Origin: Betaproteobacteria bacterium
GTDB lineage: Bacteria; Pseudomonadota; Gammaproteobacteria; Burkholderiales; Burkholderiaceae_C
Assembly: GCA_031417735.1 (NCBI GenBank)
Contig: JANOWE010000174.1
Location: 2,358 to 66,357 of the forward strand
Length of the DNA stretch: 64,000 nucleotides
Direction of reading: 5' to 3'
In this document: positions 4,324-20,649 of the stretch, piece by piece
How positions within the stretch are numbered: position 1 is the stretch's first letter
Layout of the letters: every line of letters starts with the position of its first letter
Program-made: the position numbers and the translations under genes
The notes under the pieces: model-generated
What the model saw: only the letters and a program-made list of their open reading frames with translations
Told to the model about the DNA's origin: nothing
The model's database searches: none

Positions 4324-6132
4324 ATGTCGAGTCCGGACACCGAACAGTCACCCAACGCCGCTGCGCAAGCCTGGCTGAGCGGCTTCGACAAAGCCCTGGC
4401 CAGCCGCAACATCGATGCCGCCGTGGCGATGTTTGGCGAAGCATGCTTCTGGCGCGATCTGGTCAGCTTCACCTGGAACCTGAGCACCCAGGAAAGTCCG
4501 GCTCAGGTTCGTGACATGCTGACCGCGCGGCTGGACGATGTGGCGCCATCGAACTGGCAGCTCGTCGGCGACGCCAGCACCGCCGACGGCATCACCGAAG
4601 CCTGGTTCGGCTTCGAGACCCGCGTTTCGCGCGGCAAGGGCCTGCTGCGGCTGAAAGACGGCAAGGCCTGGACCCTGCTGACGAGCATGGTCGAGTTGAA
4701 GGGCATGGAAGAGCAGACCGGCGAGCGCCGCGCCGCCGGCGCCGAACATGGTGCGCAGCAGGGCCGGCAAAGCTGGGGCCAGCGGCGTGCGGCCGACCGT
4801 GCCGCGCTGGGCCACGAGGTGCAGCCCGATGTGGTCGTGATCGGCGGCGGCCAGGGCGGCATCGCACTGGGCGCGCGCCTGGCCCGGCTCGAGGTGCCAA
4901 CCATCATCGTCGAGAAGAACGCCAAACCCGGCGACAGCTGGCGCAATCGCTACAAGAGCCTGTGCCTGCACGACCCGGTCTGGTACGACCACCTGCCTTA
5001 CCTGAATTTTCCGGACGACTGGCCGGTGTTTGCGCCCAAAGACAAGATCGGCGACTGGCTCGAGGCCTATACCCAGATCATGGGCTTGAACTACTGGGGC
5101 TCGACCACCGCCACCCACTGCGAATACGACGAGGCCAGCGGCCGCTGGGCAGTGCAGGTGCAGCGCGACGGCAAGACCATCACGCTGCGGCCGAAAGAAC
5201 TGGTCATCGCGCTGGGCGTGTCCGGCCATGCCCAGGTGCCCAAGATTGCTGGCGCCGAAAGCTTTGAAGGCGACCAGCACCATTCCAGCCGGCACCCCGG
5301 GCCCGACGCCTATGTCGGCAAGAAGGCGGTGGTGCTGGGCAGCAACAACTCCGCCCACGACATCTGCGCCGCGCTGTGGGAGGCGGGTGTGGACGTGACC
5401 ATGGTGCAGCGCTCGTCGACCCACATCGCGCCCTCGGCCGCGCTGATGGAGCTGGCGCTGGGCGGGCTGTACAGCGAGCAGGCGCTGGCCGCCGGCATCG
5501 ACCACCACAAGGCCGACCTGATCTTTGCGTCGGTGCCCTACAAGATCATGCACAGCTTCCACATCCCCGTTTATGAGGAGATGAAGCGGCGCGAGGCTGA
5601 CCTCTACGGCCGGCTGGAAAAGGCCGGCTTCATGCTCGACTTCGGCGACGACGACTCGGGCCTGTTCATGAAGTACCTGCGCCGGGGCTCGGGCTATTAC
5701 ATCGACGTCGGCGCGTCCGAGCTGGTGGCCAATGGCAGCATCAAGTTGAAGAGCGGCGTCAACATCGAGCACATCAACCCGCACTCGGTCACGCTGACCG
5801 ACGGCAGCGAGCTGCCGGCCGACCTGCTGGTCTACGCCACCGGTTACGGCTCGATGAACCGCTGGCTGGCCGACCTGATGACGCCAGCGGTGGCCGACCG
5901 CCTGGGCAAGGTCTGGGGCCTGGGCTCGGACACCACCAAAGACCCCGGGCCCTGGGAAGGTGAGTTGCGCAACATGTGGAAGCCCACGCAGGTGCCGCAC
6001 CTGTGGGTGCACGGTGGCAACCTGCACCAGAGCCGGCATTACTCGCAGTTCTTGTCGCTGCAGTTGAAAGCCAGGCTGGCCGGGTTGCCCACGCCGGTGT
6101 ATGGCCAGGCGCCTGTGCACCACCGCGCCTGA
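4324..6132 (+). CDS. Flavin-containing monooxygenase (BVMO/FMO-like) with N-terminal SnoaL/NTF2-like domain
   Basis: Rossmann motifs VIGGGQGG and VLGSNNSAHD; FMO motif variant FEGDQHHSSRH; ATGY motif; GGAG RBS upstream of ATG 4324. Confidence 0.85.
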   Translation: MSSPDTEQSPNAAAQAWLSGFDKALASRNIDAAVAMFGEACFWRDLVSFTWNLSTQESPAQVRDMLTARLDDVAPSNWQLVGDASTADGITEAWFGFETRVSRGKGLLRLKDGKAWTLLTSMVELKGMEEQTGERRAAGAEHGAQQGRQSWGQRRAADRAALGHEVQPDVVVIGGGQGGIALGARLARLEVPTIIVEKNAKPGDSWRNRYKSLCLHDPVWYDHLPYLNFPDDWPVFAPKDKIGDWLEAYTQIMGLNYWGSTTATHCEYDEASGRWAVQVQRDGKTITLRPKELVIALGVSGHAQVPKIAGAESFEGDQHHSSRHPGPDAYVGKKAVVLGSNNSAHDICAALWEAGVDVTMVQRSSTHIAPSAALMELALGGLYSEQALAAGIDHHKADLIFASVPYKIMHSFHIPVYEEMKRREADLYGRLEKAGFMLDFGDDDSGLFMKYLRRGSGYYIDVGASELVANGSIKLKSGVNIEHINPHSVTLTDGSELPADLLVYATGYGSMNRWLADLMTPAVADRLGKVWGLGSDTTKDPGPWEGELRNMWKPTQVPHLWVHGGNLHQSRHYSQFLSLQLKARLAGLPTPVYGQAPVHHRA

Positions 6133-6177
6133 GCCGGCCCGGCCGACCGGCGGCGCGGCCTTGCAGGTCAGCGGCAT

Positions 6178-6201
6178 GGCGCTGAACTAGACTTCAGCGC
6201 C
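6178..6201. promoter_or_regulatory. 9-bp inverted repeat GGCGCTGAA-N6-TTCAGCGCC between the monooxygenase and the reductase (hairpin or operator)
   Basis: Read directly from the sequence; no U-tract follows; function unknown. Confidence 0.3.
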
Positions 6202-6242
6202 GCTGCGGCTTGGCGCTGCGGACCCATCGACGCTGAGACCAC

Positions 6243-7529
6243 ATGCCCCTCGACCCTGAGCCCTCCCGCCCGCCCGCGCTGCTGATCGTGGGTGCCGGCA
6301 ACGCCGGCGCCGAACTGGCCGTGGCGGCGCGGCAGCAGGGCTGGGCCGGCGCCATCACGCTGCTGGGCGACGAGCCGCACCTGCCCTACCACCGGCCGCC
6401 GCTGTCCAAGGCCTACCTGGCCGGCAGTGCGCCGGCTGACACGCTGACCATCCGCCAGCAGGCTGCCTACGACAAGGCCTTGGTCAGCGTGCGCACTGGC
6501 GTGAAGGTGCAGCGCATCGCCCCCGCCGCGCGCTGCGTGGTGCTGGATGACGGCAGCACGCTGGCTTATGACAAGCTGGCGCTGTGCACCGGCGGCAGCG
6601 CACGCCAGCTGCGGGTCGACGGTTTGGCCGAGGGCGCTGCGCCAAACAATCTTTTCTACCTGCGCCGTCGTGAGCACAGCGACGCGATGCGCGCCGCGCT
6701 GTTGCCCGGCACGCGGCTGGTGGTCATTGGTGGCGGATACATCGGGCTGGAGGTGGCCGCGTCGGCGCGCAAGCTGGGCGCCGAGGTCACGGTACTGGAA
6801 GCGCTGCCGCGGGTGCTGGCGCGCGTGACCGGACCGCAGCTGTCGGCGTTCTATGAATCCGTGCATCGCGAGGCAGGGGTCGATGTGCGCGCCGGCGTAG
6901 CGGTGGTGCGGGTGGACTGCGCTGACGATGGCCGCGTCACGGCGGTGGTCTGCGCCGACGGCAGCCGCATTCCGGCCGACGTGCTGGTGGTCGGTGTGGG
7001 CATGCTGCCCAACGTGGCGCTGGCCGAGGCGGCGGGCCTGGTGGTGGACGGCGGCATCGTCGTCGACGCGCTGTGCACCACGTCCGACCCGGACATCTTC
7101 GCCGCCGGCGATTGCACGGTGCACGACAACCTGGCCTATGGCCGGCGCATCCGGCTGGAATCGGTGCCCAACGCGCTGGAGCAGGCGCGGGTGGTGGCCG
7201 CCACGCTGTGCGGCAAGCCCCGTGCCGCGCCTGCCGCGCCCTGGTTCTGGTCGGACCAGTACGCGCTGAAGCTGCAGATGGTGGGCCTGTGCGAGGGCTT
7301 TGACGAGTTTGTGCTGCGCGGTGACATGGCCCAGCGCAGCTTCATCGGCTTCTACCTGCGCCGCGGCCAACTGATCGCGGCCGATGCGGTGAACCGTCCG
7401 GCCGAGTTCATGGTCGCCAAGCGGCTGGTGGGCGAACGCCTGGCCGTGACGGCGGCCGCGCTGGCGGACGAGGCTCAGCCGTTGAAGCAACTGCTGCCGG
7501 CGCCACCGGTCGCGCCTGCCTCGGCCTAG
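6243..7529 (+). CDS. Ferredoxin--NAD(P)+ reductase (putidaredoxin/rhodocoxin reductase-like)
   Basis: IVGAGNAG FAD motif; PYHRPPLSK; VIGGGYIGLE NAD motif; TSDPDIFAAGD; RLESVPNA; PWFWSDQY. Confidence 0.92.
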   Translation: MPLDPEPSRPPALLIVGAGNAGAELAVAARQQGWAGAITLLGDEPHLPYHRPPLSKAYLAGSAPADTLTIRQQAAYDKALVSVRTGVKVQRIAPAARCVVLDDGSTLAYDKLALCTGGSARQLRVDGLAEGAAPNNLFYLRRREHSDAMRAALLPGTRLVVIGGGYIGLEVAASARKLGAEVTVLEALPRVLARVTGPQLSAFYESVHREAGVDVRAGVAVVRVDCADDGRVTAVVCADGSRIPADVLVVGVGMLPNVALAEAAGLVVDGGIVVDALCTTSDPDIFAAGDCTVHDNLAYGRRIRLESVPNALEQARVVAATLCGKPRAAPAAPWFWSDQYALKLQMVGLCEGFDEFVLRGDMAQRSFIGFYLRRGQLIAADAVNRPAEFMVAKRLVGERLAVTAAALADEAQPLKQLLPAPPVAPASA

Positions 7530-7690
7530 TACTGCGACCCGGAGATATCGAAACATGAAACCGCGTCTTCGACCCGAGGGCGTCGTTGCACATCGTCGCG
7601 ATACCTACGGGTATCGCTGCGGTTTGCGCCTAGCCTTCGGGCCGAATCCATCGCTTTCATCATGTTTCGATCCTTCCGGGTCGCAGTACT
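7528..7690. mobile_element. MITE-like element, ~163 bp, with 31-bp imperfect terminal inverted repeats
   Basis: Left end AGTACTGCGACCCGGAGATATCGAAACATGA versus reverse complement of right end AGTACTGCGACCCGGAAGGATCGAAACATGA (28/31 identical). Internal hairpin GCGATACC-TACG-GGTATCGC. Lower GC than the flanks. Lies between convergent genes. Confidence 0.7.
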
Positions 7691-7692
7691 GG

Positions 7693-8421
7693 TCAGAGAT
7701 CGAAGTTGCTGGGCATCATCACCACGTCGCGGATGGTCAGTCCGCGCCTGCGGCTCAGCATGAACAGCACCACCTCGGCCACCTCGCTGGCCTCGATCAG
7801 GCTGCCGTCGGCCCTGGCCTGAGCCAGCTTTTCGGGTGGCCAGTCGGCCAGCAGGCCGGTGATGACGGGCCCCGGTGAGACCGATCCCACGCGCAGCCCA
7901 TGCTTGAAGACCTGCCGGCGCAGGGTCTGCACAAAGCAATTGATGGCCCATTTGGACGCGGCATAAACCGGCTCCCAGGGCGTGGGGAAATGCGCCGCCA
8001 GTGAGCTGGTGATGATGATGTCGCCGCTGCCCCGCTCGATCATGTGCGGCAGCACGTCGTGCACGTTCTTCATCACCACGTTGACATTCAGGTTCAGCAT
8101 GCGGTCGATGGCCGAGGTCTCGTTGTCGACCAGATCGCCGCCCACATACAGCCCGGCATTGGCATGCAGGATGTCGATCTGGCCGGCCAGCGCCAGTGCC
8201 TGCGGCACCAGCGTGGCGCAGGCCGCCGCGTCCAGCAGGTCCAGGCACAGCGGCATGGCGGCGCCGCCATGCGGGTCGCACAGCGCGGCCAGGGCCGCCT
8301 GGTCGCGGTCCACCGCCACCAGGCGCGCACCTGCGGCCAGCAGGGCCTGGCTGCAGGCCAGACCGATGCCCGACGCGGCCCCGGTCACCACCGCCACTTT
8401 GCCGTCCAGGCGGCCCGTCAT
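7693..8421 (-). CDS. rbtD: SDR oxidoreductase, ribitol 2-dehydrogenase-like
   Basis: TGAASGIG; NAGLYVGG; YxxxK (VYAASK); WEPVY, LADWP and TIRDVVMMPSNFDL match the ribitol dehydrogenase subfamily as I recall it. Start M54 of the listed ORF gives 242 aa. Confidence 0.8.
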   Translation of the reverse strand: MTGRLDGKVAVVTGAASGIGLACSQALLAAGARLVAVDRDQAALAALCDPHGGAAMPLCLDLLDAAACATLVPQALALAGQIDILHANAGLYVGGDLVDNETSAIDRMLNLNVNVVMKNVHDVLPHMIERGSGDIIITSSLAAHFPTPWEPVYAASKWAINCFVQTLRRQVFKHGLRVGSVSPGPVITGLLADWPPEKLAQARADGSLIEASEVAEVVLFMLSRRRGLTIRDVVMMPSNFDL

Positions 8422-8595
8422 CGTGTTCACCATCGCCATCGCCATCGCCCCGGTAGTGCGCGCCGGCCACCCTGGCTCCCGCTGCATGTTGACGCGAAGC
8501 ATACGGCCTCGATCCACAGGCGCCCTGCCGGAATTTTGTAGGGATGCCGCTCCACGCGCATAGGGGTAAGCTGGCCGCAAACCGGAGACATCGCC

Positions 8596-11500
8596 ATGGC
8601 CAGGTCACCCAAGCCAACTCGATCAGGCGGCGCTGCTGCCGACACCGCCCTGCCCACACTGTCGGTGCTGGCGGTGGACGACGGCCCCGCTCGTGCGCTG
8701 CCGCCGCAGCAACAGGTACAGGTGCAATCCAGGCGCCGGTTGCGGCCCGGCGCCGCGCGTGACGCAGCGGCCACCGCCACACCGGTGGCGCCCGACGAGG
8801 TGGTGCGGGTGGAGTACCAGAACGGCCTGGTGATGTGGACCCGCGCCGACGACCTGCTGCGCGAGCGTGGCCACAAGACCCTGGCCCGGGGCGACGGCAC
8901 GGCGCATTGGCAGATCGACGCCGGCCCGCGCAACATGGCGCTGCGCAGCGACGTGGCGCCGGGCGCCGATAGGGGCGCGCTGGGCCTGGGCATCAAGCTG
9001 CTGGAGTTCTTCGGTGTGCGCGTGACCGAAGGTGCGGCGCGGGCCATCGGCACCCGCTTCGAGCGCCGCCAACTCGGCCGCGATCCCGGCCTGTACCGGG
9101 TTGACCTGAGCCCGGCGCTGGCCATGGCCGCCATCGCCGACGGGCCGGGCACGGTCAAGGCCGACCAGCCGGTGCTGCTGTTCTTGCACGGCACCATGTC
9201 CAGTTTCGGTGGCAGCTACCGCGACCTGGCAGCGGCCGGCAACGACGAGACCGGCCGCGCCGCGCAGGCGCTGCGCCAGCAGTTTGCGGTGCGCTACGGC
9301 CAGGAGATGTACGCCTGGGAGCACCGCAGCCTGAGCGAGAGCCCGATCCAGAACGCGCTGGCGCTGGTGCAGCAGCTGCCGGTGGGCGCGCGGCTGCACC
9401 TGATCTCGCATTCACGCGGCGGCCTGGTGGGCGAGCTGCTGTGCCTGGCCCAGCGCGACCATCAAAGCGACCCGCTGACCGGCACGCTGCTGGACGGGCT
9501 GTTTGCCGGCGACCACAGCGTGGGCGAACAGCTGGGCCTGAACCAGCTCGGCGCCGACGAGCTGGCCGCTCACCAGGCCGCCTATGCCGAAGACCGCCAG
9601 AGGCTTCTGCTGCTGCTGAAGGAACTGGACGAGCGCCGCATCCAGGTTCAGCGCTTTGTGCGCGTGGCCTGCCCGGCGCGCGGCACCACGCTGGCCTCGG
9701 GCCGGCTCGACCGCTGGCTCAGCGTGGTCGACGCGCTGGTGCCCGACGGCCTGTTCGGTGACGCGCTGGATTTTCTGCTCGCGGTGGTGAAAGAGCGCAC
9801 CGACCCCCGCACGCTGCCCGGCCTGGAGGCGATGATGCCCGGCTCGGCGCTGACCCGGTTGCTGCAGATGCCGGGCCTGAGCACCAGTGCCGACCTGTCG
9901 GTGATCGCCGGCGACGTGCAGGGCAAGGGTCTGTGGGGCCAGTTCAAGCTGCTGGCGCTGGACTGGTTTTATGCCGCCGACCACGACCTGGTGGTCAACA
10001 CCGGATCGATGTATGGCGGCATGCGCCGGCCTGATGGCGGCGCTCGCTGGCGGCGCGACCAGGGCGAGCAGGTCACCCATTTTCATTACTTCCGCAACCC
10101 GAGTTCGATGGCCTGGCTGGGCGCCGCGCTGGCGCGAGAGCAGGGCAGCGACGCCGGTTTCCTGCCCATCGCGACGGCCGTGCAGCAAGAGCCGCGCTGG
10201 CGTTCGGCGGTGCGGGCCTCGCGCGCGTCGGCCACGCCCCGGCCGATCGTGGTCGTCATTCCCGGCACCATGGGCAGCGCGCTGGCGGTCAACGAGCGGC
10301 CGGTCTGGCTGGCCTACCTGGCGCTGCTCAAGGGCGGTCTGGGCGACATCGGCATCGACGCCACCGGCGTCGCGCCGGTCGACCTGCTCGACAACTTCTA
10401 CGGCCCCTTGCTGGAGCACCTGGCCCAGGCCCACCGGGTCGAGATCCTGCCCTATGACTGGCGGCGCTCGGTGCGGCAGGCGGCGGTGCTGCTGACCAGC
10501 AAACTTGAAGCGCTGCTGCCCGAGGCCGAGCGCAGCGGCCAGCCGCTGCACATCGTGGCCCATTCGATGGGCGGTCTGGTGGCCCGGGCCATGATTGCCG
10601 ACGGTGGCGCCGGCGCAGCGGCCTGGCGCCGCATGACCCAGCTGCCGGGCAGCCGGCTGCTGATGCTGGGCACGCCCAACCGGGGCTCGTTCGAGGCCGT
10701 GCGCTGGCTGACCGGCGAGAACCCGACCCAGGCCAAGCTGATCCTGCTCGACTTCACCCGCGGCAGCCGGGGCGTGGTCGACGTCGTGCGCCGCTTCCCT
10801 GGCCTGGCCGAGCTGCTGCCCTTCGACCAGGAGCCCAACCCCTGGGCCCAGACCGGTACCTGGCGTGCGCTGAAGACCCAGCTCGCCGCCAGCTGGCCGC
10901 TGGTCGACGAGGCCGTGCTGCGCGAGGCCCAATCGACCTGGACCCTGCTGCGCAACGCAGCGGTGCCGGCCGAGCACATGCTCTATGTCGCCGGCTGCCA
11001 ACCGGCCACCGTGGTCGGCCACCAGGTGGTCGACGAGAGCGAGGCCTTCACGCGCCAGCGACTGCGCTGGATCGCCAGCGCCGACGGTGACGGCACCGTG
11101 GCCTGGGCCTCGGGCCGCCTGCCCGGCGTGCCGACCTATTACGCGCCGGATACCGGCCACGACCAGCTGTGCAGCAACAGCGCTGACCGGCGCATCTTTC
11201 GCGGCTATGTCGACCTGCTGGCCAGCGGCCGCACCGACCAGCTGGCCATCACCCCCCCCGGCGGCCAGCGCAGTGCGGCGGCGTCCGAAAACTTTCTGCT
11301 GCCTGACCTGCCGCTGGTGGACGATCTGCCCGACGAGGCCTCGGTGCGCCAGCTGGGCTTTGGCGGCACGCGCGGCAAGGCACCGGGCGAGGCCGACACC
11401 GGCAGCGGCACCCGCTTGCAGGTCAGCGTGCGCCATGGTGACCTGCGCTATGCGCGCTACCCGGTGCTGGTAGGCCACTACCAGGGCGACACCATCGTCA

Positions 11501-15585: not shown

Positions 15586-15613
15586 GGCCGCGACAATATG
15601 CATTATGTAAAAC
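15586..15613 (+). other. dif-like (XerC/XerD) 28-bp recombination site
   Basis: GGCCGCGACAA-TATGCA-TTATGTAAAAC has an 11-6-11 layout. The right arm matches the E. coli XerD arm TTATGTTAAAT at 9/11; the left arm is divergent (5/11). AT-rich patch between convergent genes. Confidence 0.5.
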
Positions 15614-15705: not shown

Positions 15706-17205
15706 TCAGTCTTCTGGCGCGGGCCATGCCGGCGCATGGCTGCCGGGCGGCATCGCCGGCCTGGCCCAGCCTGCCGGAGTGCGCGAGAACTGCGCCGTGT
15801 GGCGCAGCGCGCGCAGACGGCCAAAGCCCGAGTACTGTTCGTCCATCAGCGCCTCAAACTCGTCGGCAGCTGGCGGCACGGTGGCCAGGTCCTGGGGCCG
15901 CTGCCCCATCTGGCGCAGCCAGTGGCCCACACCCGCCAGCGACACCCGTACCCGCCAGCTGCCGCCCTCGGTTTGCTGCCGCAGCAATGCGGCCTGAGCG
16001 CCAAAGGCCAGCAGGTGGCCGGCTGCGTAGTCCAGGATGGGCAGCGGCAGGGCCTGGGGCTGGGTCTTGCCGGCGGCTGCGGCCTCGGCCAGGTTCAGGC
16101 CGGTGGCGGTTTGCACCAGCGAATCAAAGCCGCGACGCCCGGCCCAGGGCCCCGTCCAGCCGTAGGCGCTGAGCTCGGCCACGACGATGCCGGGCCGTGC
16201 ATGCGCGAGCTGCTGCGCGCTCAGCCCACGCAGGTCCAGGCTGCCCGGGCGGTAGCCCTGCAGGAAGACATGGGCCCGTGCGCTCAGGTCCGCGAGTTGT
16301 TCGCGGCCGGCGGGTTGCCGCAGGTCGATCTGGCACGACAGCTTGCCCCGGCTGGTGTCGGCGATGGCCTCGATGTTGGGCAGATGCGGGCCATTGACCA
16401 GCAGCACGTCGGCGCCGTAGGCGGCCAGGCAGCGGCCGGCCACCGGCCCGGCGAGGATGCGGGTCAGCTCCAGCACGCGCAGGCCCGAAAGCGGCGGCCG
16501 GTCGGCGCTGACGGTGGGCCAAGGCAGCGGGTCTGCGTCAGCGATGCGGTCGATCTGCAGCAGGGCTTGAGCCGCTACCGCCTGGCCCTGGGCATGCTCA
16601 TCCCACTGCGCCAGGCTGCGCGCCGCGGCAGCCACGCCACCGGCCTGGTTCAAGACCAGTTCGACGTCTTCGGCCTGCCACCGGGTCAGCGCCTGGGTCA
16701 CGGCAGGACGCTCGGTCTGGTCGCCTTCGGGCAGCCCGAGCAGGCGCAGTGCGGCGTCGCGGTGGTGGGCAAAGTTCGCATGCAGGCGGACCCAGCCGCC
16801 GCGCTGTCCGGTCAAGGCGTCGCCGCAGCGGTACAGGCCCGACAGCTTGTCCCACATCGGCGGGGTCTGGCCGTCGATCTGGAAGCGGGCCATGCATTCC
16901 AGCGTGGCATGCCGGCGGTCAATCCGCAGCCGCTGCGGTGGCTCACCGGGGTGGCGCAGCGCCCACAGCCTGGCCGCCGCCAAGGCCGCCGCTGCCAGAC
17001 TGGCTTGCGCTGCGCTGGCCACTGCAAAACTGCTGGACAGAACGGCGGCCTGTGTCGCTGCCAGAGGCGCTGACGCGTCGTGACCCAGGTCGACCCAGGA
17101 CAAGGCCTCGGGTGTCAATCCGGCGTCGTGCCACAGCTTGGCCAGCAGCTGCTTGGCGTTGGCTGCGTCCGGAAAGGCGTGGTGCTTGGGGTGCATGACG
17201 GACAT
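15706..17205 (-). CDS. Family III CoA-transferase (CaiB/BaiF), long form with duplicated architecture
   Basis: PLSGLRVLELTRILAGP; YGADVL; TSRGKLS; QGYRPG; RRGFDSLVQ containing the catalytic Asp. Confidence 0.9.
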   Translation of the reverse strand: MSVMHPKHHAFPDAANAKQLLAKLWHDAGLTPEALSWVDLGHDASAPLAATQAAVLSSSFAVASAAQASLAAAALAAARLWALRHPGEPPQRLRIDRRHATLECMARFQIDGQTPPMWDKLSGLYRCGDALTGQRGGWVRLHANFAHHRDAALRLLGLPEGDQTERPAVTQALTRWQAEDVELVLNQAGGVAAAARSLAQWDEHAQGQAVAAQALLQIDRIADADPLPWPTVSADRPPLSGLRVLELTRILAGPVAGRCLAAYGADVLLVNGPHLPNIEAIADTSRGKLSCQIDLRQPAGREQLADLSARAHVFLQGYRPGSLDLRGLSAQQLAHARPGIVVAELSAYGWTGPWAGRRGFDSLVQTATGLNLAEAAAAGKTQPQALPLPILDYAAGHLLAFGAQAALLRQQTEGGSWRVRVSLAGVGHWLRQMGQRPQDLATVPPAADEFEALMDEQYSGFGRLRALRHTAQFSRTPAGWARPAMPPGSHAPAWPAPED

Positions 17206-17294
17206 GATTTGCGGTGCTGTTCAAGGCCCTGCCGGCAGCCAGGGCGGGCACCATGCGCCGACCATAGCAGCGGCAGAACAATCGCGCGCGGCTG

Positions 17295-17446
17295 TGTAAA
17301 TGAACTAACGCCATAGCCATGACCCTTACCTTGCCGAAGCATCGGCGTGGCCTTGCCGCAATGGCGGCACAAGAGCGTTGCCAGCGGCACCGATCTCTGC
17401 GCTGACCAGCGGCCCCGGTTGCCGCTGTGGCGTTAGTTCATTTACA
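17295..17446. repeat. Perfect 19-bp inverted repeat (17295-17313 and 17428-17446) flanking a 114-bp spacer
   Basis: TGTAAATGAACTAACGCCA ... TGGCGTTAGTTCATTTACA, exact reverse complements. Ends 8 bp before the recombinase-like ATG. Confidence 0.9.
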
Positions 17447-17454
17447 GTTCAGTC

Positions 17455-18600
17455 ATGCCCGCCCATCCTGTCCTTGCATCGCCATTGACCCTGGCCTTCG
17501 AGCAGTGGCTGCAACACCAGCAACTTCGCGGCCGGCTGCGGCTGGCCTCGTCGCAGGCCGTTTACCGGTCGATATGGGGTGCGCTCACCGATTGGTGCGG
17601 CCAGCAACAGCCGCCGTTGCGTCGCCTGGCCAGGCTCGACGCACCAACGATGCTGGCCTATGTCGGCTCGCGCGACACCGCCGCACGCAATGGCCAGGCC
17701 TTGACGGCGCGCTACCAGGCCCGGTTGCTGCGCCTGGTGGCGCGGGTCCAGCACCACGCCGCTGAGCTGGCCGCGGCACAACAGCGCGCCGACCTGGCGC
17801 AGTTGCCAACGCAGCCCCGCCCCAACCCACGACCGATGGCGGCCTCGCTCGCGCTGGGCGTCATCCGCGACGACGCCCCCAACCCGCCGGAACACCTGGG
17901 GCCAGAAGCCGCGCTGAAACTGCAGCAATGGCTGCAGTCCACGCCAGCCGAGCCCGCGTTGCGCTGGCAGGACCAACGCGACCGCTGCGCCTGCGCGCTG
18001 CAGCTGGGCGCCGGCCTGGGCCCGGGCGATCTGCGCGCACTGCGCTTGGGCGATGTGTGGTGGCAGCCCCTCCAGGCCGATGCCCTGGCCGAGCAGGATA
18101 TGAGCCTGTTGCTGCGCCCCGGCCTGTCACCGGCCGACCAAGCGCTCGCCCCAACGGCCCTGGCCGATCTTGCCGCCAGCACCCTGCCCTGGGCCCTGCA
18201 GGTGTCCGCCAACGGCAACGCACCGGCCCATCTGGCGCCACTGCCACCCTGGGCGGCGCGCCTGCTGGCGCAGTGGTTGACGCAGCGCCAGGCGCTGGCC
18301 ATGCCCGGCCCGGTGCTGCTGCCGTCCACCCGCAGTGGCAAGCCCTGGGGCAAGGTGGCGCAGTACAACGCCAGCCTGGCGGTGCTGCAGGCGGCCGGAT
18401 TGCCCAGCCGTCGCGCTGGGGGTTCGTTCCGCCTGCGCCACAGCTTTGCGCTGCAGCAGCTGGCGCTGGGCCATGCGCCGGAACTGGTGGCCCGCTGGCT
18501 GGGCGTGGCCGACCCGGCGGTGATGGCACGCTACCGTCAGGCGATGCGACCCATGCCTCTCTCACCGGTCACGACAGTGCCACCAGAGTCCCGCCGATGA
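17455..18600 (+). CDS. Tyrosine recombinase/integrase-family protein with degenerate catalytic residues
   Basis: Box I RDRCACALQLGAGLGPGDL (Arg to Gly); box II SFRLRHSF...LG-V...MARY (His to Phe, His to Val; Arg and Tyr retained). Confidence 0.75.
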   Translation: MPAHPVLASPLTLAFEQWLQHQQLRGRLRLASSQAVYRSIWGALTDWCGQQQPPLRRLARLDAPTMLAYVGSRDTAARNGQALTARYQARLLRLVARVQHHAAELAAAQQRADLAQLPTQPRPNPRPMAASLALGVIRDDAPNPPEHLGPEAALKLQQWLQSTPAEPALRWQDQRDRCACALQLGAGLGPGDLRALRLGDVWWQPLQADALAEQDMSLLLRPGLSPADQALAPTALADLAASTLPWALQVSANGNAPAHLAPLPPWAARLLAQWLTQRQALAMPGPVLLPSTRSGKPWGKVAQYNASLAVLQAAGLPSRRAGGSFRLRHSFALQQLALGHAPELVARWLGVADPAVMARYRQAMRPMPLSPVTTVPPESRR

Positions 18601-18822
18601 ACCACGCCCATCACCGGCCCGACCAGGTCGACACTGTGGTGCTGGGCGTCGGCCTGTTCTGGCTCGCCGGCCAGGGTGGCTATGGCATGCAGAGCGCCGA
18701 CGGCGCGGCGCGGCTGGCCGCCGCGCTGCCGCTGGGACAGCCGCTGCCCGATGACCTGCTGCAAACCGAACTCAATCTGCCGGCCCTGCTGGGCCCGGCG
18801 CGCTGCCGGGCTCGATGCTGGC

Positions 18823-20436
18823 TCAGGCGGTGCGCTTGCGTGCGGGCGCGCGACGCGGCGCCGCGTCGCCCACCAGGTTCAGCGTGGCCGCCTTGGCAGC
18901 AGTCTTGCGGCGCGATGCTGGCGTGGCCGCGGCAGCGATGGCCTTGCGGGGCCGGGCCGCCCTCGCCACCTTCGCAGCAACGGCCACAGGCGCCGCCAGC
19001 GCCGCTGCCGGTTCGGCCTCGATCGCACGGGCCAGCACCAGCAGTTCCTGGTGCGCCGCCAGCAGCGCGTCGGCCAGGTCGGCGATATCGGGTACCGCGC
19101 GGCGGCAGCCGATCAGGCCATAGTCGAGCCGGCCGTTGTAGCTCTGCACGGTGACGTTCAGCGCCATGCCATGGGCCGGGATCGACACCGGGTAGTAGCT
19201 GATGATCCTGGCGCCGGCAAAGTACAGCTGGGCCTGCACGCCGGGCACGTTGGAGATCACCACATTGGCCAGCGGCGGCAGCACATTGGCCAGCCGCGAG
19301 CGGCCGTAAAGCGAGGCCAGGCCCGACATCAGCCAGGGCGCGGCCAGCATCGGAAAGTCGGTCGGGATCGCCGACTTGACCCGGCTCAACATCGACTTGG
19401 TGTGGCGCGAGCCGGCGGCAATGGCCTGCAGGCGCTGCAGCGGGTCGGCCACGTCGGTGGCCAGGGTCATGGTCACCATGCTGACCTGGTTGTTGGCGCT
19501 GTCGTCGCCCTCGGCGCGCAGGCTCACCGGTACCGCGGCCGACAAGGCGCGCTCGGGCAGCTCGCGGTGGCCCAAAAAGTAGCCGCGCAACGCGCCGGCC
19601 ACGCTGGCCATGACCACATCATTGAGCGACACGCCGCAGCGCTTGGCGATCTCCTTCGCCTCGGCCAGCGGCACGGTGCGCGCGGCAAAGCGGCGCTGGT
19701 TGGTGATGGCCACGTTCATCGAGGTGCGCGGGGCCAGGAACTTCATGTCACGCCGCAGCAGCCAGGCGCGTTTGCCCTGCTCATCCTTCTCGGGCAGCAA
19801 CAGGCTCTTGGCTGCGCGGGTGATGGCCGGCAGCGCCTTGACCAATTTGACGACCTGGAGCGCGGTGTTGCTCAGCGCCGCGCCCAGCAACTCGGCCACG
19901 CCCAGCTGGTACTGGTTGCGGCGCAGCCTGGCGCGCGGCGGCTTGATGCGCCGGCCCTCGGCCACGGTGTCCATGATCGCCCGGGCCAGCGCCACACCGG
20001 CCTGGCCGTCCAGGCGCGAATGGTGAACCTTGATGTACAGCGCCACCTCGCCGCTGCGCAGCCCGTCGATGATGAAGAATTCCCACAGCGGGCGGCTGCG
20101 GTCCAGCAAGGTGGAATGCAGCCGCGCCACATACTGCTGCAGTTGGCTGTTGCTGCCCGGCTTGGGCAGGGTGATGTGGCGAATGTGGTGCTCGAGGTCG
20201 ATGTCCTCGTCCTCGACCCAGACCGGGTTGGACAGGTCAAACGGCATCAGTGCGAGCTTGCGCGTGAACACATCGGCCAGGTGCAGGCGTTCGGCCAGGC
20301 AGGCCTTGACGTCCTCGAAGAAGTCGCCGCTGTAGTTCGGCGGCAGTTCCAGCACATTGAGCGAGCCCACATGCATGGGCATTTCGGGCGACTCCAGGTG
20401 AAGAAAGGCCGCGTCTATGCCGCTGAGGTGGTTCAT
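18823..20436 (-). CDS. Wax ester synthase/diacylglycerol acyltransferase (WS/DGAT) with basic Ala/Lys/Arg-rich tail
   Basis: LSGIDAAFLHLE; PMHVG; LDRSRPLWE; catalytic HHSRLDG; SNVPG; LNVTVQSY. Confidence 0.93.
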   Translation of the reverse strand: MNHLSGIDAAFLHLESPEMPMHVGSLNVLELPPNYSGDFFEDVKACLAERLHLADVFTRKLALMPFDLSNPVWVEDEDIDLEHHIRHITLPKPGSNSQLQQYVARLHSTLLDRSRPLWEFFIIDGLRSGEVALYIKVHHSRLDGQAGVALARAIMDTVAEGRRIKPPRARLRRNQYQLGVAELLGAALSNTALQVVKLVKALPAITRAAKSLLLPEKDEQGKRAWLLRRDMKFLAPRTSMNVAITNQRRFAARTVPLAEAKEIAKRCGVSLNDVVMASVAGALRGYFLGHRELPERALSAAVPVSLRAEGDDSANNQVSMVTMTLATDVADPLQRLQAIAAGSRHTKSMLSRVKSAIPTDFPMLAAPWLMSGLASLYGRSRLANVLPPLANVVISNVPGVQAQLYFAGARIISYYPVSIPAHGMALNVTVQSYNGRLDYGLIGCRRAVPDIADLADALLAAHQELLVLARAIEAEPAAALAAPVAVAAKVARAARPRKAIAAAATPASRRKTAAKAATLNLVGDAAPRRAPARKRTA

Positions 20437-20649
20437 GGTCTGTCCCTGTGTCGCGCTGAAAGCAGGCCCGCATTATGCGAAACCGAGTCAAGGGCATGGG
20501 TAACGCAGCAGGCAGACCTCGGCGCGGGTGGCGCCGTGCAGGCAGCGTGACCCTTCGTCCTACCGGTGGACAGGGCGCGCGCTGACCGGGGCCGGGGTCC
20601 ACGCGCCGTCCAATCTGTGCATGAACAATTTCATGCCATCCGCATCGCC

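Follow-up and report, generated by a model that had tools for sequence, protein, structure and literature searches.

A conserved inverted two-box site beside a degenerate tyrosine-recombinase-fold gene, linked to Rep_3-type replicons of Burkholderiales

A 64,000-nucleotide stretch of a Betaproteobacteria bacterium assembly (the window) holds a perfect inverted repeat directly in front of a gene for a 381-amino-acid protein; we call the gene recL and its product RecL. With somewhat better than even confidence, we favour the reading that the repeat is a pair of RecL recognition boxes, autoregulatory and tied to Rep_3-type secondary replicons. We observed that the boxes are conserved, that their two arms co-vary between lineages, that the two-box cassette co-occurs with recL, that it is linked to rep genes and that RecL has lost catalytic residues. 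The parts of the reading differ in strength. Judged from sequence comparison, RecL probably binds the boxes and, a little less securely, would regulate its own gene. More tentative, and less likely than not, is a role for the cassette at the level of the replicon, as a two-faced fork barrier or terminus of the kind formed by terRL/terRR in plasmid R1 or by IRI-IRII beside rtp.

In the mechanism that we propose, each box would be held by one RecL clamp that leaves the DNA uncut. With the proximal box lying over the recL promoter and start, RecL would cap its own synthesis, and it might repress the divergent CoA-transferase gene likewise. The two-box cassette would be the cis-acting site of a maintenance module on Rep_3-type plasmids, chromids or integrated remnants, with one cassette next to recL and orphan cassettes on other replicons served in trans. 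For the replicon-level role, a Ter-like roadblock is our favoured candidate.

The two-box cassette upstream of recL

One arm of the repeat is the 19-mer TGTAAATGAACTAACGCCA (17295-17313); the other (17428-17446) is its exact reverse complement, and 114 bp separate the two, just as the original prediction had described it. It lies in a 249-bp gap between a CoA_transf_3 gene on the minus strand and the 381-aa open reading frame (ORF) of the Phage_integrase family on the plus strand, which bears out its predicted placement between a CoA-transferase and a recombinase-like gene. With one mismatch allowed, the repeat grows to 23 nt (17295-17317 / 17424-17446), and no arm pair with up to three mismatches arose in 100 dinucleotide shuffles of the window. 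A genome-wide search for the 19-mer, a check proposed along with the original prediction, found the arms to be unique: both the 181-bp element and the 19-mer arm pair occur once in the 4.6-Mb assembly, while the core 8-mer GAACTAAC occurs five times, two of these in the arms. As a single strand, the repeat region folds at -49.3 kcal/mol (z = -7.0). The features of the locus are as follows.

17295..17313, no strand: distal (left) arm, one predicted RecL box; outer A/T-rich tail TGTAAAT, core GAACTAAC at 17302-17309, inner GCCA; exact 19-mer
17314..17427, no strand: spacer, 114 bp, 67% G+C; conservation between species absent; same-orientation homology to the spacer of the closest relative
17428..17446, no strand: proximal (right) arm, predicted inverted RecL box; inner TGGC, core GTTAGTTC at 17432-17439, tail ATTTACA
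17440..17457, plus strand: A/T-rich tail and start codon, without a Shine-Dalgarno sequence
17455..18600, plus strand: recL, encoding a 381-aa Xer-like tyrosine-recombinase-fold protein with a degenerate active site
15706..17205, minus strand: CoA-transferase family III gene, divergent from recL and paired with it in at least eight lineages

Comparison of orthologous loci, likewise proposed at the outset, showed that the two-box repeat is kept directly upstream of about 40 RecL orthologues. Its carriers are Aquabacterium-like genomes, eight other genera, and plasmids or chromids of Variovorax, Piscinibacter, Ideonella and Eleftheria. Within the genus, 38 of 58 genomes carry recL; in the wider family, a sample of 200 genera gave 9 with the gene, the window's own included. 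Among the recL-positive genomes of the genus, 32 of 38 carry the full cassette, which consists of two inverted boxes of about 18 bp with their core 8-mers 54-133 bp apart. From the end of the proximal box to the recL ATG there are 4-16 nt, again without a Shine-Dalgarno sequence. Position counts over 28 RecL-adjacent and 11 other cassettes gave the box consensus, read outward, T-G-S-C-GTTAGTTC-R-T-W-W-W-T, and the distal-arm box of the window recurs across the same 28 RecL-adjacent and 11 orphan cassettes. The exact pattern GAACTAAC-N30-160-GTTAGTTC was found in 28 genomes of the genus, every one of them RecL-positive, and this canonical pattern was absent from all 20 RecL-negative genomes of the genus. 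Four further RecL-positive genomes carry GAACCAAC/GTTGGTTC arms.

Conservation is confined to the boxes. The perfect 19-mer of the window exceeds the conserved box length, and past the box, arm-to-arm identity is no higher within a cassette than between cassettes. This lack of extra arm identity indicates selection on two protein-sized sites rather than on a long hairpin, and we rejected a long hairpin or attC-like fold on the same ground. Nor is anything in the spacer conserved family-wide at a fixed distance; a conserved spacer element was considered and dropped. One clade has a G/T-rich stretch in common, with pairwise scores that were marginal after multiple testing. In the GAACCAAC lineage, spacers at L022, L153 and L154 (genomes G006, G080 and G081) are strongly G/T-rich towards recL, with GGG/GGGG runs, and may form G-quadruplexes.

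Between lineages both arms vary jointly, as GAACCAAC, AAGTTAAC, AAACCAAC, GTACTAAC, ACGCTAAC or GGRTAAC variants. In each of the following the same variant stands in both arms.

G188: AAGTTAACGG
G120: AAACCAACGGC
G251: CGGRTAACGGCAA
Piscinibacter plasmid: CGTACTAACGCC
Variovorax SRS16 plasmid: TACGCTAACGGC
Variovorax RA8 plasmid: TACTAACGGCAGC
G056, a 26%-identical homologue in another family: TATACGGTAACCCC

The same holds away from recL. Relatives carry one to three cassettes per genome, at unrelated loci, and in many genomes one or two of these are orphans whose tails and boxes are alike. The inner type of an orphan, GCC or GGC, matches the type of its own genome, and the orphan G081:C3 has its genome's T-to-C variant in both arms. 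A need for a hairpin alone would permit the cassettes to drift independently; a common, lineage-specific sequence points instead to one trans-acting reader, for which RecL would be the obvious candidate. Orphan positions are syntenic between species, and often no gene starts there. We also asked whether the cassette upstream of rbgA is an insertion, and set this aside: other species have different neighbours there, and no empty site could be aligned.

At the promoter side of the locus, the tail ATTTACA of the proximal arm stops 8 nt short of the recL ATG. In many orthologues, if not all, this tail reads CATAAT and lies 5-9 nt ahead of the ATG, from which we infer that it may serve as the -10 element of a leaderless recL mRNA. 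Across 17100-17600 there were no consensus promoters or terminators and no T-run terminator; inspection of the arms by eye alone found no fitting ECF, sigma-54, LexA or IHF site, and Rfam at E <= 1 returned zero matches for the window locus and six related loci. The CoA-transferase gene is a possible co-regulated target. Its family III domain spans only residues 239-430 of 499, and the N-terminal part of about 230 aa has no Pfam match.

Two further observations concern recL loci elsewhere. Two draft genomes (G036:C28/C80 and G023:C246) have two assembled copies of the recL 5′ end, on separate contigs that break near the cassette; a mixture of strains, or difficulty in assembling the repeat, could account for this. 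The 26%-identical RecL-like gene of the other family (G056:C7, locus L028, about 51.0-51.3 kb) comes with a 16-nt inverted repeat of its own, around a 92-bp spacer, and with a LexA-box-like CTGT-N8-ACAG over a TTGACA...TAGACT promoter, an overlap that suggests SOS control.

A degraded recombinase linked to Rep_3-type replicons

RecL has the two-domain tyrosine-recombinase fold. The window protein itself matches Phage_integrase weakly (E = 0.015), and 23 of 25 aligned relatives, which databases name 'site-specific integrase' (Aquabacterium, Ideonella or Pseudaquabacterium, Burkholderiaceae), match PF00589 with a best E of 3.6e-11. The family profile matches XerA, XerH, XerD and, as a weak PDB match, IntI4. 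An AlphaFold model (pLDDT 81.3) contains both the CB and the CAT domain, and its nearest structures are XerA, XerH, the Tn1549 integrase and Cre. Our literature search returned no description of this family.

The active site is another matter. Aligning the family profile to XerA, XerH and XerD placed the catalytic positions, and of the full set of Arg-I, Lys, His-I, Arg-II, His/Trp and Tyr, four out of six are gone. Arg-I is replaced by Gly within an invariant GAGLGPGD, the beta-hairpin Lys has no equivalent (ANGSAPAH), His-I is Phe (FRLRH) and His-II is Val (LGV); Arg-II and Tyr are retained. These states are invariant or nearly so among 25 RecL sequences, and plasmid-borne relatives show the same degenerate pattern, with Thr at Arg-I. 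Among dead tyrosine recombinases that act as DNA binders, as we predict for RecL, the nearest precedent is TnsF of Tn6022-like Tn7 elements, a tyrosine-recombinase-derived protein that has lost catalysis and binds DNA in a sequence-specific manner (PMC10293859). TnsF has zinc fingers, two CB-like domains and no catalytic chamber, and it selects the transposon target at comM (PMC10293859), whereas RecL has the entire two-domain fold and no link to transposition genes. A recombinase trio or tandem array was also considered for the locus and rejected: the downstream ORFs are an antisense artefact (18676-20550) and unrelated WS/DGAT and transglutaminase-like genes. The artefact, on the plus strand, is Arg/Gly/Ala-rich, has no family match and lies antisense to the WS/DGAT wax-ester synthase gene at 18823-20436 on the minus strand.

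The cassette and recL keep company with plasmid-type replication genes, a link that the original prediction did not contain. RecL homologues occur, one per replicon, on large plasmids and chromids of Variovorax, Piscinibacter, Ideonella, Eleftheria and Aquincola. On a 143-kb Piscinibacter gummiphilus plasmid (L160), the order is parB, parA, rep, iteron-like repeats, cassette, recL; at 8230-8680, between rep and cassette, there are at least eight iteron-like copies, on both strands, of approximately AGGTGRCCRTCYATGGGAG, and this run is probably the plasmid origin. recL adjoins parAB on Variovorax RA8 plasmid 2; for Variovorax SRS16 plasmid 3 and an Ideonella plasmid, the distance from recL to rep or parB is 7-8 kb. 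The orphans G068:C2, G004:C8 and G003:C328 stand 38-66 bp past the stop codon of a Rep_3-family initiator, beside parA. Taking the window genome's own Rep_3 protein as query, we found a rep homologue within 75 kb of 17 of the 20 cassettes on sufficiently long contigs, several of them less than 6 kb away; by our rough estimate, chance would give about 5%. The number of rep genes per genome is approximately the number of cassettes. Rep_3 genes are also present in some RecL-negative genomes, which implies that the RecL module is accessory. The window itself was searched for a replication origin at 55-64 kb, a candidate that was dropped for want of rep or par genes there.

The gene arrangement resembles that of known fork traps. 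Plasmid R1 has two ter sites, terRL/terRR, beside its origin; IRI-IRII adjoin rtp in Bacillus subtilis; tus and rtp are autoregulated via a ter site in their own promoters; and on the secondary chromosome of Pseudoalteromonas, tus lies beside the origin with a skew that fits unidirectional replication (PMC10331603). Like origin-proximal fork traps, the cassette is an oppositely oriented pair of sites (here, predicted boxes) tens of bp apart and near a plasmid-type origin, at a variable length of DNA from it; like the Tus and RTP systems, it has the gene of its putative binder adjacent, one site in the promoter region of that gene and further sites that would be served in trans. The likeness stops at the protein, as RecL has the tyrosine-recombinase fold and no relation to Tus or RTP in sequence or fold; Pfam, NCBIfam and fold searches returned tyrosine recombinases only. 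It also stops short of chromosomal Ter sites, which are mostly single and polar, whereas every cassette is a symmetric pair.

Strand asymmetry around rep and the cassette

If rep marks an origin and the cassette a fork stop, the stretch between them should carry an asymmetry opposite to that of both flanks, and the order of the two should decide its polarity. Raw GC skew showed the predicted flip in all six contigs with a rep-cassette spacing of 10-74 kb.

G015:C7: p = 4e-6
G015:C10: p = 0.002
G081:C1: p = 4e-4
G006:C42: p = 3e-8
G022:C4: p = 1e-4
G068:C1: p = 0.02

Coding strands are C-rich throughout the genus (by -0.014 to -0.027 when all positions are counted, and by about -0.03 to -0.10 for third positions), so raw GC skew follows gene orientation and replication direction cannot be read from it without correction. 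When a per-gene coding-strand term was removed, the flip was kept, with the predicted polarity, in G015:C7 (-0.020 / +0.022 / -0.011; p = 4e-4), G006:C42 (p = 0.002) and G068:C1 (p = 4e-4), and was weak in G015:C10, where the block holds four genes only. Overall, a flip at rep and cassette is seen in 3-4 of 8 contigs, a count to be read with the caveat that the coding-strand term of the block genes may differ from the flank value. G015:C7 (681 kb) and G015:C10 (593 kb) have a single skew sign nearly throughout, the block excepted. On the window contig, the corrected skew is positive on the left side of the cassette and stays negative over about 40 kb on the right side, with only nine genes on the left and p = 0.09.

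The asymmetry of some contigs is thus compatible with largely unidirectional replication, as in fork traps, although skew support is limited to those 3-4 of 8 contigs and fork arrest by RecL is putative. As a terminator, the cassette would halt one fork almost at once and the other after a full circuit, making replication largely one-directional. Taken furthest, RecL and its cassettes could form a third, independently evolved kind of bacterial replication terminator, on Burkholderiales plasmids and chromids, self-repressing via the promoter-proximal box; we put this forward as a speculation that is doubtful at present.

A dif-like 28-mer, GGCCGCGACAATATGCATTATGTAAAAC, lies at 15586-15613, flanked by the convergent EamA and CoA-transferase genes. 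It is 25/28 identical and in the same place in the closest relative (L075); at about 25 other loci, no copy turned up within 8 kb of recL. We rejected the idea that the cassette marks a chromosome terminus by way of dif, since the dif-like site is near recL only in that relative and G015:C7 has no global skew switch at recL. The TGTAAA core that the original prediction took to be shared by the arms and the dif-like site falls in the A/T-rich tail, which varies in sequence among orthologues, and the proposed link does not hold.

Several observations weigh against RecL boxes with a replicon-level role. The cassette contig of the window has no rep gene, and the genome's own Rep_3-ParAB module, on another contig, C213, has no cassette. 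There, 4983-9280 encodes ParB-ParA and a divergent Rep_3 initiator, with an A/T-rich, repeat-bearing gap between parA and rep; this module shows that the assembly holds a plasmid-type replicon, free or integrated. Some orphans, such as the one upstream of rbgA, are distant from any rep gene or on short contigs. recL has one box or none in G001, G009, G023, G077 and the P0099 clade: at G023:C455 (L016), tandem 15-bp repeats that lengthen the RecL N-terminus replace the proximal box, and in the P0099 clade (L117-L126) the distal box alone remains, 180 nt upstream of a longer ORF. A sigma-70 consensus scan gave no match at the locus, and the leaderless-promoter idea leans on the CATAAT-like tails of some orthologues. 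RecL keeps Arg-II, Tyr and the invariant basic residues R194, R293, K296 and K300, leaving room for some chemistry. As to the fork barrier, the corrected flip is gone in G081:C1 and G022:C4 and there is none at spacings of 126-136 kb (G025:C26, G079:C1); the block genes mostly point towards rep, head-on to the proposed fork; and the same skew block would be expected from a segmental inversion, or from an integrated plasmid remnant with rep and recL at its ends.

Alternative explanations

The plasmid context would also fit multimer resolution, or another kind of recombination site. RecL would then be atypical but active, exchanging strands at the boxes, and would resolve dimers of secondary replicons, as Cre/loxP, ResD/rfsF and XerCD/cer do, with orphans served in trans. 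Along with Cre/loxP, ResD/rfsF, XerH/difH and TnpI/IRS of Tn4430, RecL has an Xer-like fold with Tyr and Arg-II retained, and a gene that abuts its own site and, on plasmids, sits in the backbone near rep and par (rep or parAB adjoining); by analogy with such adjacent-site systems, RecL is likely to regulate its own gene by occupying the site. Cassettes and Rep_3 modules are about equal in number, the spacer of one orthologous orphan pair is inverted, and spacers at different loci of one clade look related, a likeness that becomes marginal after multiple-test correction. We nevertheless hold resolution to be unlikely, chiefly from the catalytic residues. Unlike the enzymes of those systems, RecL lacks Arg-I, the hairpin Lys and both His, and Arg-I and Lys are absent family-wide; in Cre, activity above 5% depends strictly on two residues, the Tyr and the beta-hairpin Lys, which makes the Lys indispensable (PMC2943603). 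The sites differ as well. A tyrosine-recombinase core site has two half-sites around a 6-8-bp crossover region, whereas each arm here is a lone half-site, 54-133 bp from the other, with nothing conserved past the A/T-rich tail and no second conserved half-site across such a region. In addition, the tails of the two arms are mostly non-identical and do not provide the overlap homology that recombination requires.

The original prediction had offered two readings of the repeat, a fimS-like invertible promoter or paired binding sites for autoregulation or looping by the adjacent protein, and the evidence separates them. In the former, the 114-bp spacer would be flipped to switch recL or the CoA-transferase gene on and off. 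The setting recalls fimS invertons with FimB/FimE and the RecV switches of Clostridioides, with short inverted repeats around a small segment, divergent genes and a tyrosine-recombinase-family gene beside them. Two comparisons point the same way: the spacer of the rbgA-upstream orphan, orthologous in G031 and G074, is inverted between these two species (p ~0.004), and part of the recL-adjacent spacer of G022:C4 resembles that of G068:C1 in opposite orientation. The second of these loses significance after correction, and within one clade spacer likeness in either orientation is marginal once corrected for 1,560 comparisons; at recL itself, the G031 and G074 spacers are ambiguous in orientation. 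Among independent metagenome contigs of three strains with three RecL proteins, by contrast, 10/10, 10/10 and 6/6, a total of 26, had one orientation, and the window spacer has the same orientation as that of a 90%-identical relative (score 33.5 against 7.5 inverted; shuffles 1.3 ± 4.5). Unlike in invertons, then, both orientations were not seen together in these contigs or the closest relative. Inside the segment we found no consensus sigma-70 site and no promoter-like or conserved motif at a fixed place, by a consensus scan that is blind to non-consensus promoters. Spacers of 54-133 bp are short for such a switch, orphans often have no gene start nearby, and RecL is short of Arg-I, Lys and both His. 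A phase-variable promoter is therefore quite improbable; rare inversion on an evolutionary time scale, conceivable without a dedicated enzyme, is possible. The binding-site alternative fits the comparative data, namely the conserved boxes, their lineage-specific co-variation, their absence where recL is absent and a proximal box that abuts the start codon, and this half of the original prediction now looks the sounder.

We give very little weight to a small mobile or folded-DNA element, a MITE- or attC-like hairpin that RecL would move or copy. Integron attC sites are 57-141 bp long, and with sizes of 70-170 bp the cassette is likewise a variable-length element bounded by inverted ...CTAAC / GTTAG... 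motifs that recall the R''/R' boxes; its one to three copies per genome at unrelated loci, and one clade's seemingly related spacers across loci, could be read as signs of movement. An attC, however, has L boxes and an extended imperfect stem and occurs in arrays, whereas the cassettes are single and isolated, with no excess complementarity past the box, and RecL is not an IntI. A MITE or repeat family was rejected, with one 181-bp copy here, one to three in relatives, divergent interiors and no target-site duplications; orphan sites, moreover, are syntenic across species, and Rfam gave no match. Just as improbable, in our view, is that the repeat is the site of some other factor or a partnerless structural repeat, such as a bidirectional hairpin, next to recL by accident. 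The DNA hairpin is stable, and the tie between RecL and the boxes comes from comparing sequences. Such a repeat would not account for the strict co-occurrence of cassette and recL over 58 genomes, for the fixed place upstream of recL on chromosomes and plasmids of several families, or for a box sequence that is lineage-specific and common to all cassettes of a genome, and there is no T-run terminator.

Tus and RTP are the only two well-characterised families of bacterial terminator proteins, both narrowly distributed, and we know of nothing comparable described in Burkholderiales, whose genomes often include chromids and megaplasmids. What is defined here is a recognisable cis-trans pair: a recombinase-fold protein whose chemistry is gone, a co-evolving inverted two-box site, and a link to Rep_3-type replication modules on chromosomes, chromids and plasmids. 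The pair is present in cultured, fully sequenced strains of Piscinibacter gummiphilus, Ideonella dechloratans and Variovorax, which makes the question of its role testable. Whether that role is a fork barrier, a replicon-specific repressor or an odd resolution system, RecL would stand as a clear example, in bacteria, of a tyrosine recombinase that has been domesticated, and the finding would correct the 'site-specific integrase' label in databases, which wrongly implies a mobile element.

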